From IMG/VR virus record IMGVR_UViG_2718218452_000012: a stretch of 64,000 nucleotides of DNA, one strand, 5' to 3'. A program made the position numbers. The stretch comes from a virus. Taxonomy: Duplodnaviria > Heunggongvirae > Uroviricota > Caudoviricetes. Shown here one piece after another: positions 41,801 through 44,800 of this stretch (positions are counted from its first letter, which is position 1; every line of letters starts with the position of its first letter).

Positions 41801-44800
41801 GCCCGTCGCTGGCTGGAAAGAAACTCAGGTGAGTGATATGGATTTCGACACAATCATGGAAAAGGCTTACGAAGAATACTTCGAAGGCCTTGCCGAAGGC
41901 GAAGAAGCTCTCAGCTTCAGTGAGTTTAAACAGGCACTCAGAATAAGAATGTGCTCTCACAATGACGCGGAGCACAAATATGAGAAGCAAAATCAGACCG
42001 CAGAAAATTTTGTTCTGGAACCCGGAGAAACGCTTTTCAAAATTCCCGTTACGTGCCCCATTTGCGGTTTTACATCAGAAGAACTTGACGACTCCTGTAA
42101 CAATCAGGAAACAACCAAGTATGTCGAAGATGATACCGAGTGCGCACGAAGAACGATTATATCCACGAGTCCAAACTCCAGGACCAATAAATCTCACTAT
42201 GAGAGGGTGATTAATCCACTCCCCCAAACCAATAAAAAAGATGCCGGAGGACAAAAAACCCAATGGAACAACGGGATATCTGTCAAAAAAAGACGTTCCA
42301 TTAAAGACAAACAACGCAGCGCCAACAACTGTAAGAGCTTTATACCAGTAATCAATTTTCATGTTCTTAAGCGGATTTATTGGTGGTTGCGACATTGCTT
42401 AATGAATCCTTAAAACTGTGGTGATTTTAAGGATACCACCTCGCCTGACGTGGTTAAAAGCAGGCACACAACACGAAAGCGCACGGCGAAGTTCGTCTCA
42501 CTGTACGGTGTCGTTAAATTTAATTCGACCGTGCGCTTCCGGTTGTGGCAACCCGCAAAATGGCGCGGCGGTAAGTATGGCGGGGTTATTCCTTCCCCGT
42601 TGAGGACACCGGGTTGTCAGGTTGACCATACGCTTAAGTGACAACCCCGCTGCAACGCCCTCTGTTATCAATTTTCTGGTGACGTTTGGCGGTATCAGTT
42701 TTACTCCGTGACTGCTCTGCCGCCCTTTTTAAAGTGAATTTTGTGATGCGGTGAATACGGCTAAGCGCACGCGGAACAGTTAAAACCAAAAACAGTGTTA
42801 TGGGTGGATTCTCTGTATCCGACGTTAATTGTTAACTGGTTAACGTCACCTGGAGGCACCAGGCACTGCATCACAAAATTCATTGTTGAGGACGCGATAA
42901 TGAAAACGTTATTACCAAACGTTAATACGTCTGAAGGTTGTTTTGAAATTGGTGTCACTATCAGTAACCCTGTATTTACTGAAGATGCCATTAACAAGAG
43001 AAAACAAGAACGGGAGCTATTAAATAAAATATGCATTGTTTCAATGCTGGCTCGTTTACGTCTGATGCCAAAAGGATGTGCACAATGAATTCAGCATTTG
43101 CGCTTGTTCTGACAGTTTTTCTTGTTTCCGGAGTGCCAGTTGATATTGCAGTCAGTGTTCACAGGACAATGCAGGAGTGTATGACTGCAGCAACCGAACA
43201 GAAAATTCCCGGTAACTGTTACCCGGTCGATAAAGTTATTCACCAGGATAATATCGAAATCCCGGCAGGTCTTTAAAACAGTTCCGTAATAAATATCCGG
43301 TTTCATTCTTATATGCCAGCAATGGCAGGGATTTGTTCATCCTTAAATCTGTCATGAGGTTAAAACAAATGAGTAAAGTCTTTATTTGCGCCGCTATTCC
43401 TGACGAACTGGCAACAAGGGAAGAAGGCGCTGTGGCTGTAGCCACAGCCATTGAAGCTGGCGACGAACGCCGTGCTCGAGCAAAATTTCACTGGCAATTC
43501 CTGGAACATTATCCGGCTGCTCAGGACTGCGCTTATAAATTTATTGTCTGCGAGGATAAACCTGGCATACCCCGCCCTGCCCTCGATTCATGGGATGCTG
43601 AATATATGCAGGAAAACCGCTGGGATGAGGAGTCTGCTTCTTTTGTCCCGGTTGAGACTGAATCCGATCCGATGAACGTCACTTTTGACAAGCTGGCCCC
43701 TGAAGTACAGAACGCTGTCATGGTTAAGTTCGACACATGTGAAAACATCACCGTTGATATGGTTATTAGCGCATGCGCTAATAACCATATCAACGGTGAT
43801 GTTTTCACATGTGTCGAACTTAACCATGACAGCGTTCTGTACTTCAGGGGCCAGCTTGTCAAAAGTGACGTTCATCGGATCGGATTCAGTCTCAACCGGG
43901 ACAAAAGAAGCAGACTCCTCATCCCAGCGGTTTTCCTGCATATATTCAGCATCCCATGAATCGAGGGCAGGGCGGGGTATGCCAGGTTTATCCTCGCAGA
44001 CAATAAATTTATAAGCGCAGTCCTGAGCAGCCGGATAATGTTCCAGGAATTGCCAGTGAAATTTTGCTCGAGCACGGCGTTCGTCGCCAGCTTCAATGGC
44101 TGTGGCTACAGCCACAGCGCCTTCTTCCCTTGTTGCCAGTTCGTCAGGAATAGCGGCGCAAATAAAGACTTTACTCATTTGTTTTAACCTCATGACAGAT
44201 TTAAGGATGAACAAATCCCTGCCATTGCTGGCATATAAGAATGAAACCGGATATTTATTACGGAACTGTTTTAAAGACCTGCCGGGATTTCGATATTATC
44301 CTGGTGAATAACTTTATCGACCGGGTAACAGTTACCGGGAATTTTCTGTTCGGTTGCTGCAGTCATACACTACTGCATTGTCCTGTGAACACTGACTGCA
44401 ATATCAACTGGCTCTCCGGAAACAAGAAAAACTGTCAGAACAAGCACAAATGCTGAATTCATTGTGCACATCCTTTTGGCATCAGACGTAAACGAGCCAG
44501 CATTGAAACAATGCATATTTTATTTAATAGCTCCCGTTCTTGTTTTCTCTTGTTAATGGCATCTTCAGTAAATACTGGGTTACTGATAGTGACACCAATT
44601 TCAAAACAACCTTCAGACGTATTAACGTTTGGTAATAACGTTTTCATTATCGCGTCCTCAACAATGAATTTTGTGATGCAGTGCCTGGTGCCTCCAGGTG
44701 ACGTTAACCAGTTAACAATTAACGCCGGATACAGAGAATCCACCCATAACACTGTTTTTGGTTTTAACTGTTCCGCGTGCGCTCAGCCGCATTCACCACA

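Follow-up and report, generated by a model that had tools for sequence, protein, structure and literature searches.

A spacer-less 1,196-bp palindrome between two lambdoid prophages in the chromosome record of Escherichia coli C3 is very probably an assembly artefact

We examined a 1,196-bp perfect palindrome that lies within a 64,000-nucleotide stretch of DNA (hereafter the window) and conclude that it is very probably an assembly artefact, namely a fold-back chimeric join made at a contig end that had stalled in prophage repeats, and that it is most likely absent from the cell. This reading is favoured because each arm duplicates a locus of which the record has an intact version at another position, because the junction occurs in one assembly and close to the end of its record, and because further junk junctions follow it. 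The original prediction, made from the sequence of the window, had left three readings side by side: a very recent fold-back inverted duplication or gene conversion, a strain permissive for palindromes, and an assembly chimera. The last of these is the one that our results favour; a permissive strain finds no support, and a very recent duplication or conversion is unlikely.

Results

A perfect palindrome at the core of a head-to-head prophage pairing

Bases at positions 42900-44650 were compared with the complement of their mirror partners, and the symmetry centre was found to be exact and spacer-less at 43773/43774 (…GGTTATTAGCGCA/TGCGCTAATAACC…, with the slash at the centre). This comparison confirmed the centre proposed earlier, while the proposed extent of 43136-44411 (1,276 bp) proved right as a region of symmetry and too wide as a perfect palindrome, as it contains one mismatched pair (G at 43175 against 44372) and perfection is confined to 43176-44371. 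The two nested elements are as follows.

43176-44371, no strand: perfect palindrome (junction J1), 1,196 bp (2 x 598 bp), equal to its own reverse complement
42595-44952, no strand: gapless near-palindrome, 2,358 bp, with 8 mismatched pairs

The mismatched pairs lie 598, 639, 672, 802, 951, 1010, 1016, and 1024 bases from the centre, the three innermost all within ydfD. At these three the prophage A alleles are G at 43175, T at 43134, and C at 43101, opposite 44372, 44413, and 44446 in the prophage B arm; sequence specific to A lies left of 42590, where indels are frequent, and sequence specific to B lies right of 44955. All 8 correspond to differences between two prophages, one at the Qin site (prophage A, left arm) and one at serU (prophage B, right arm), and each allele could be traced to its respective prophage, such that from 598 bases outward the alleles on the left are those of the Qin-site prophage and the ones on the right those of the serU prophage. 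The arms therefore fail as a fold-back of one single locus. Outside the gapless part the inverted homology goes on with indels, at 94-96% as far as 38925/48488 and at 84% as far as 33572/54154; the palindrome is the core of a stretch of approximately 20 kb in which two different lambdoid early regions face each other head to head. Chance or low complexity as the origin of the palindrome is ruled out by its exact length of 1,196 bp.

Genes in the two arms

Both arms hold the Qin-type early-left order of DicF, dicB, ydfD, and the exonuclease gene (ydfE homologue), downstream of a dicA/dicC-type immunity region. The features around the centre, from left to right, are these.

42674-42725, plus strand: DicF sRNA, left arm (Rfam RF00039, 76.7 bits)
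42900-43088, plus strand: dicB, left arm (RefSeq annotation)
43085-43276, plus strand: ydfD, left arm (RefSeq annotation and translation)
43369-43773, plus strand: 5' stub of the exonuclease gene of prophage A, first 405 nt, cut at the centre
43774-44178, minus strand: 5' stub of the exonuclease gene of prophage B, first 405 nt, cut at the same nucleotide
44271-44462, minus strand: ydfD with an internal stop, right arm (annotation and translation)
44459-44647, minus strand: dicB, right arm (RefSeq annotation)
44822-44873, minus strand: DicF sRNA, right-arm mirror image (Rfam RF00039, 76.7 bits)

The claim that ydfE is truncated in both arms is borne out by the two stubs, each of which retains 405 nt (135 codons) of a gene that measures 2,472 bp and encodes 823 aa when intact. 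RefSeq describes the stub of prophage A as 'exonuclease VIII, incomplete, missing C-terminus'. Neither 135-aa stub has the catalytic domain (Rv2179c-like 3'-5' exonuclease), which a Pfam match places at residues 642-813 of the intact protein. Intact copies of the gene are present in both prophages (prophage A, locus L005, 27370-29841; prophage B, locus L004, 13108-15579). We also recovered all of the mirrored open reading frames reported earlier, that is, 43333-43959(+) with 43588-44214(-), at 208 aa each, and 43236-43451(-) with 44096-44311(+), at 71 aa each. Moving outward, the mirrored coding sequences first differ in ydfD (43085-43276 versus 44271-44462), where the difference at 43175/44372 makes codon 31 of the right-arm copy a stop; the intact serU prophage has the same pseudogene.

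This layout resembles the dicF-dicB-ydfD-ydfE operon of the Qin (Kim) prophage of K-12 in that both C3 arms have DicF, dicB, and ydfD followed, in that order, by the 5' portion of the exonuclease gene and in that the left arm occupies the Qin site (ydfJ flank). It differs in that ydfE of K-12 is an N-terminal remnant truncated at another position, whereas the native gene in strain C3, as in strains C7 and OkiPb01675, is full length (823 aa).

Both arms are second copies within the same record

The window is identical to positions 5,290,041-5,349,582 followed by 1-4,458 of NZ_CP010119.1, the chromosome of E. coli strain C3 (cow; assembly GCF_001900515.1). The record origin, i.e., the circularisation point, therefore falls at window position 59542/59543, with the palindrome centre 15,769 bp from the linear end, and the record both begins and ends inside lambdoid prophages. 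From the left arm to the right edge, the window is made up of four blocks.

19812-43773, plus strand: left-arm duplicate, 23,962 of 23,962 bases identical to NZ_CP010119.1 3,458,354-3,482,315, minus strand
43774-58090, plus strand: right-arm duplicate, 14,317 of 14,317 bases identical to the intact serU prophage at 4,285,415-4,299,731
58091-58451, minus strand: piece of the ybhC (att-lambda) prophage, flipped in place, 360 bp, esterase gene positions -265 to +96
58452-64000, minus strand: late-control and nin region of the ybhC prophage (DUF3927, Q, lpxR, ninG, nin genes)

The left arm belongs to the Qin-site prophage (ydfJ flank) and comprises its tail, head, and lysis genes, Q, relBE, a dicA-like repressor gene, dicB, and ydfD. 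The other copy, at 3.46 Mb, continues past the point at which the window turns back, into the full exonuclease gene, the excisionase (xis) and integrase (int) genes, and the Qin-site flank rspA-ynfA. The right arm extends from exonuclease nt 405 to approximately nt 1338 of a 1,851-bp nanS-p-like esterase gene. Its source, the serU (tRNA-Ser) prophage at 4.29 Mb, is complete, with an integrase gene, the full exonuclease gene, a ydfD pseudogene, dicB, dicA/dicC, Q, a tRNA Ile-Arg-Arg cluster, a terB pseudogene, and the nanS-p-like esterase gene, and its ydfD and terB pseudogenes are the same as those of the right arm. The two source prophages lie about 0.8-1 Mb apart in the record and, at the join, share 598 bp without a difference and reach 97.7% identity over 1.3 kb.

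Taken as a unit, window positions 19812-58451 form a redundant tail of 38,640 bp, the last approximately 38.6 kb before the record closes. It is built of a copy of the Qin-site prophage, from the capsid gene to exonuclease nt 405, joined strand-to-complement to a serU copy that starts at exonuclease nt 405 and, by way of dicB, dicA, Q, and the tRNAs, reaches back into the esterase gene.

The junction is confined to one assembly

Among 5,426 complete E. coli genomes, a 600-bp probe over the centre was fully covered in 1, while its half-sequence was found in 3,888. A 36-mer spanning the centre had no match in the metagenome and viral contig collections, in which the native 36-mer from the uninterrupted gene had at least 120 viral-contig matches. 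The chimeric 196-aa open reading frame that runs over the centre was found in no other public assembly. A literature search for a publication or method behind NZ_CP010119.1 returned nothing usable (the string CP010119 matched grant numbers only), and a 2015 ExPEC paper that we checked for the sequencing method of the record makes no mention of PacBio.

Strain C7, from the same accession series and host, is nearly clonal with C3, with 0 differences over 16 kb of ynf core flank and three over 37.8 kb. Its Qin-site prophage shares the tail genes of the window, the exonuclease gene there is unbroken, and the rspA flank is in place; its serU prophage is complete, with early genes leading via lambda-like late genes of its own to nleF-yodB. 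In OkiPb01675, a bovine isolate of independent origin, the exonuclease gene is intact and xis, int, rspB, and rspA come after it; the ybhC prophage of this strain is complete as well. The palindromic junction is absent from both C7 and OkiPb01675. C3 exceeds C7 in chromosome length by 39,547 bp, compared with 38,640 bp for the redundant tail; this comparison is suggestive and no proof. The sibling record of strain D1, of the same accession series, has no spacer-less palindrome at its end. That record likewise ends in a lambdoid early region, which faces another one.

A blunt join followed by two further strand switches

At the break, both intact copies read …TTAGCGCA/CAGGAATTG…, and the native continuation of prophage A is …AGCGCA/CAGGAATTG…. 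At the centre of the palindrome the native …TTAGCGCA/CAGG… has been turned into …TTAGCGCA/TGCGCTAA…. The join is blunt, passing from strand to complement at one nucleotide with zero spacer and zero microhomology, and the neighbouring GCGC was left unused.

Downstream, position 58090 marks an abrupt end of the copied serU prophage, partway through the esterase gene. It is followed by the flipped 360-bp piece, which was defined by comparison with locus L008 of OkiPb01675 and is flanked by junctions J2 (58090/58091) and J3 (58451/58452), i.e., two strand switches within 361 bp. From 58452 onward a third prophage, that at ybhC, is colinear with OkiPb01675 and with many O26 genomes across the record origin. 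J3 lies approximately 1.1 kb from that origin, and all three strand-switch junctions fall within approximately 15 kb of the record end. The block between the first two junctions matches the size of a single long-read library fragment, and J2 and J3 are unlike the product of a simple second fold-back, which is a point against the artefact reading.

Two further candidates were examined in this region and set aside. A second, noisy fold-back near 57.4 kb, where inverted repeats of 73-84% are present, was rejected because the differences are substitutions, without the noise that read errors would leave; the repeats are two different Q genes and esterase upstream regions from prophage B and the ybhC prophage. 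A wrong closure at the record origin (59542/59543) is ruled out, as the sequence there is contiguous in many genomes. That the sequence over the origin is genuine, contiguous phage sequence was counted against an artefact.

The order of large segments in the C3 record

The wider structure of the record is also unusual. C3 pairs the serU early region with late genes bounded by ybhB-bioA (the att-lambda right flank) and the Qin early region with a tail module bounded by ssrA. A third prophage, which has an e14/CPS-53-like early region and a gab flank, continues into a tail with nle cargo that runs out to yodB. Compared with K-12 and C7, C3 has its four inter-prophage chromosome segments in a permuted order, with the changes located exactly at these prophages, and one segment inverted, which argues that contig ends in C3 lie in repeats that the data could not resolve. 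The same-orientation swap of two large segments fits wrong exits from long repeats and not a single prophage-mediated inversion. Real rearrangements mediated by prophages do occur in prophage-rich LEE-positive E. coli, and part of the unusual segment order of C3 could be genuine.

The palindrome should not be maintainable in C3

The original prediction had pointed to sbcC and sbcD as genes to inspect, and both are intact: SbcD (400 aa) and SbcC (1,047 aa) are annotated as such in C3 and align with their NCBIfam equivalog models over the full length. A palindrome-permissive host is thereby ruled out. In the E. coli chromosome, a 460-bp perfect palindrome placed in lacZ is cleaved by SbcCD on both sister chromosomes and kills sbcCD+ rec+ cells, and a 20-bp spacer rescues them (Leach and colleagues, PMC4245961). 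The C3 junction is like that engineered construct in being a spacer-less perfect palindrome in the chromosome, but the construct is kept only with SbcCD switched off, whereas C3 has intact sbcCD and a palindrome of 1,196 bp. Neither tolerated form is encountered in C3, which has zero spacer and 598-bp arms, compared with the 230-bp arms that are already lethal (PMC4245961). From the intact sbcCD genes and the lethality of the 460-bp palindrome, we infer that a 1,196-bp spacer-less palindrome should not be maintainable in C3.

Discussion

Our results lead us to propose a course of events for the assembly. A contig would have entered prophage repeats too long for the reads to span, and its dead end may then have been extended by a fold-back chimeric long read, in which the template and the complement of one approximately 14-kb fragment were read as one molecule; the blunt, spacer-less centre would be the end of that fragment. 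Such a read would not be sufficient in itself, because the arms differ beyond 598 bp, and a path switch between the two prophages has to be assumed as well. The layout might have passed from reads of prophage A, via the fold-back, to reads of prophage B within a zone of 1.2 kb, a switch made possible by their identity over 598 bp and their 97.7% identity over 1.3 kb. Polishing would then have made each arm match its true source, and the record would afterwards have been declared circular. The fold-back chimeric read as the cause of the join is our inference from the form of the junction and of its two arms.

Both ingredients of this proposal have precedents. Fold-back artefacts in long reads, which yield chimeric reads with false inverted duplications, are documented (Heinz, Meyerson & Li 2026, PMC12870357), and the C3 junction is like them in being confined to one data set; unlike them, it is fixed in a finished assembly, its arms were completed from two near-identical prophages, and its cause at the level of reads is presumed. 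Long-read assemblies are also documented to contain false inversions between prophages: in the Gifsy regions of Salmonella STK005, long, near-identical prophage modules unspanned by reads led to wrong joins (PMC8496262), just as we suppose for C3. The Salmonella case is a clean false inversion (PMC8496262), whereas the C3 record has gained 38.6 kb of redundant sequence together with a palindromic junction.

The alternative that survives best is that the junction is real and very recent. In this account a replication fork broke in the exonuclease gene of the Qin-site prophage in the C3 culture, and fold-back or MMBIR-type template switching copied approximately 14 kb of the serU prophage backwards, with two further switches, leaving an inverted duplication that awaits destruction. 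The duplicated segments are exact, as expected of a very recent event, the three junctions have 0-1 bp of microhomology, the record was accepted as a closed circle with genuine sequence at its origin, and palindrome-centred inverted duplications are known in E. coli (PMC3315005). Against this, a palindrome 2.6 times the lethal length must be viable with intact sbcCD, and two prophages approximately 0.8 Mb apart are joined at the same nucleotide, because of which the account needs a fold-back and a separate homologous exchange inside 1.2 kb. Moreover, the centre is without a loop or asymmetry and the available GCGC microhomology went unused, and the structure sits at the end of a linear record and is absent from the near-clonal C7. 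We consider a real event of this kind unlikely.

It is less likely still, to the point of being barely plausible, that the structure is a finishing artefact in which people or software concatenated leftover or untrimmed overlapping contigs to 'close' the chromosome. The 14.3-kb right-arm block has the typical size of a small leftover contig, the record origin is approximately 1.1 kb from J3, and the D1 record of the same series also ends in a lambdoid early region, all of which would suit such an origin. Random joining, however, would not break both homologues at the same nucleotide in opposite orientation, and this symmetry therefore speaks for a strand-to-complement event and not for random concatenation. 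An old, stable head-to-head arrangement of prophages with a centre homogenised by gene conversion can practically be dismissed, since the fall in identity with distance from the centre (100%, 99%, 94-96%, 84%) that it would account for is the similarity profile of two different prophages, each intact elsewhere at 100% identity to its arm, and since a spacer is lacking, the junction is found in 1 of 5,426 genomes, SbcCD makes such a palindrome lethal, and relatives are without the junction.

Were the junction real, it would contradict the lethality of perfect chromosomal palindromes in sbcCD+ E. coli and would be a natural snapshot, in a wild bovine E. coli with intact sbcCD, of a palindrome-centred inverted duplication before SbcCD destroys the palindrome. 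Most likely, the palindrome is neither biology nor novel, and its value lies solely in being a quality flag on NZ_CP010119.1. This record, which is labelled as a complete circular chromosome, seems to hold approximately 38.6 kb of redundant chimeric sequence and probably also wrong joins between four lambdoid prophages. The artefact yields two false 'exonuclease VIII' pseudogenes, duplicate copies of DicF, dicB, and ydfD, and a false gene neighbourhood, and these false signals would turn up wherever NZ_CP010119.1 is included in a search for palindromes or inverted duplications, in a prophage count, or in a synteny analysis.

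Abnormal junctions near the record origin

The centre of the palindrome is not the only abnormal junction in the window, as a second and a third lie approximately 1.1 to 1.5 kb from the origin of the circular RefSeq record and bound a short piece of the ybhC prophage, the lambda-like prophage at att-lambda:

58091-58451: 360-bp piece of the ybhC prophage, inverted in place, with junctions at 58090/58091 and 58451/58452

This piece runs from 265 bp upstream of the ybhC-prophage esterase gene to nucleotide 96 of that gene, and it is flanked by the end of the serU-prophage copy on one side and native ybhC-prophage sequence on the other. 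The record origin itself (window 59542/59543) falls in the late-control region of the lambda-like prophage, not at dnaA, and many other genomes carry the sequence that spans it as one unbroken stretch. The record of strain D1 (NZ_CP010134.1), which belongs to the same accession series, likewise ends within a dicA/dicC-type early region. A second serU prophage, partly deleted, faces this region, and several of the tail genes where the two meet are "incomplete"; no spacer-less palindrome was found in the last 45 kb of that record (locus L010).

Differences between the prophage copies

The ydfD gene is intact in the Qin-site prophage (window 43085-43276, plus strand) and carries a premature stop in the serU prophage (44271-44462, minus strand), where codon 31 is changed from GAG to TAG in the window copy and the intact serU copy alike. 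The Qin-site exonuclease gene of C3 differs from that of its near-clonal sister strain C7 at two single bases, one inside the perfect palindrome (A in C3 versus G in C7 at window 43497, equivalent to 27498 of L005, the intact Qin-site locus) and the other at L005 28219. Gene conversion with the serU prophage could account for them, as could cross-polishing of reads from the two prophages.

Further features of the individual prophages are:

37491-38831 (minus strand): truncated ISEsa1 (IS1202-like) transposase gene, Qin-site prophage replication region
51953-52127, 55423-55669 and 56443-56615: cargo regions of the right-arm prophage segment
60.8-61.8 kb (record 1280-2239): lpxR (lipid A deacylase) gene of the ybhC prophage, between Q and the nin region

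The truncated transposase gene also occurs in C7, in the bovine isolate OkiPb01675, and in many genomes of O26 and O157 strains, and is therefore an old remnant that has become fixed. Between its cII and cro genes, the ybhC prophage of C3 has an IS3-family insertion (record 7436-8649) that OkiPb01675 lacks. The right-arm cargo comprises a hok/sok locus with an Rfam match to sok, a cluster of tRNA genes (Ile-Arg-Arg) that lies downstream of Q, and, upstream of the esterase gene, a match to the STnc100 sRNA. Stx-phage-like lambdoid prophages usually carry such cargo; no stx genes were found in this segment.

Pairing of prophage halves in strain C3

Four lambdoid prophages of C3 combine early and late halves in pairings that differ from those of near-clonal C7 and of K-12 synteny, in three regions of NZ_CP010119.1:

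2.94-2.99 Mb (loci L132 and L133)
3.44-3.51 Mb (loci L005 and L006)
4.27-4.34 Mb (loci L004 and L009)

Here, the serU early half is joined to a bioA-flanked late half, the Qin early half to an ssrA-flanked tail, and a gab-flanked early half to yodB-flanked cargo. Three HK97-type late modules in C3 are 98 to 99.9% alike. The pairings reflect several genuine rearrangements or, alternatively, several misjoins.
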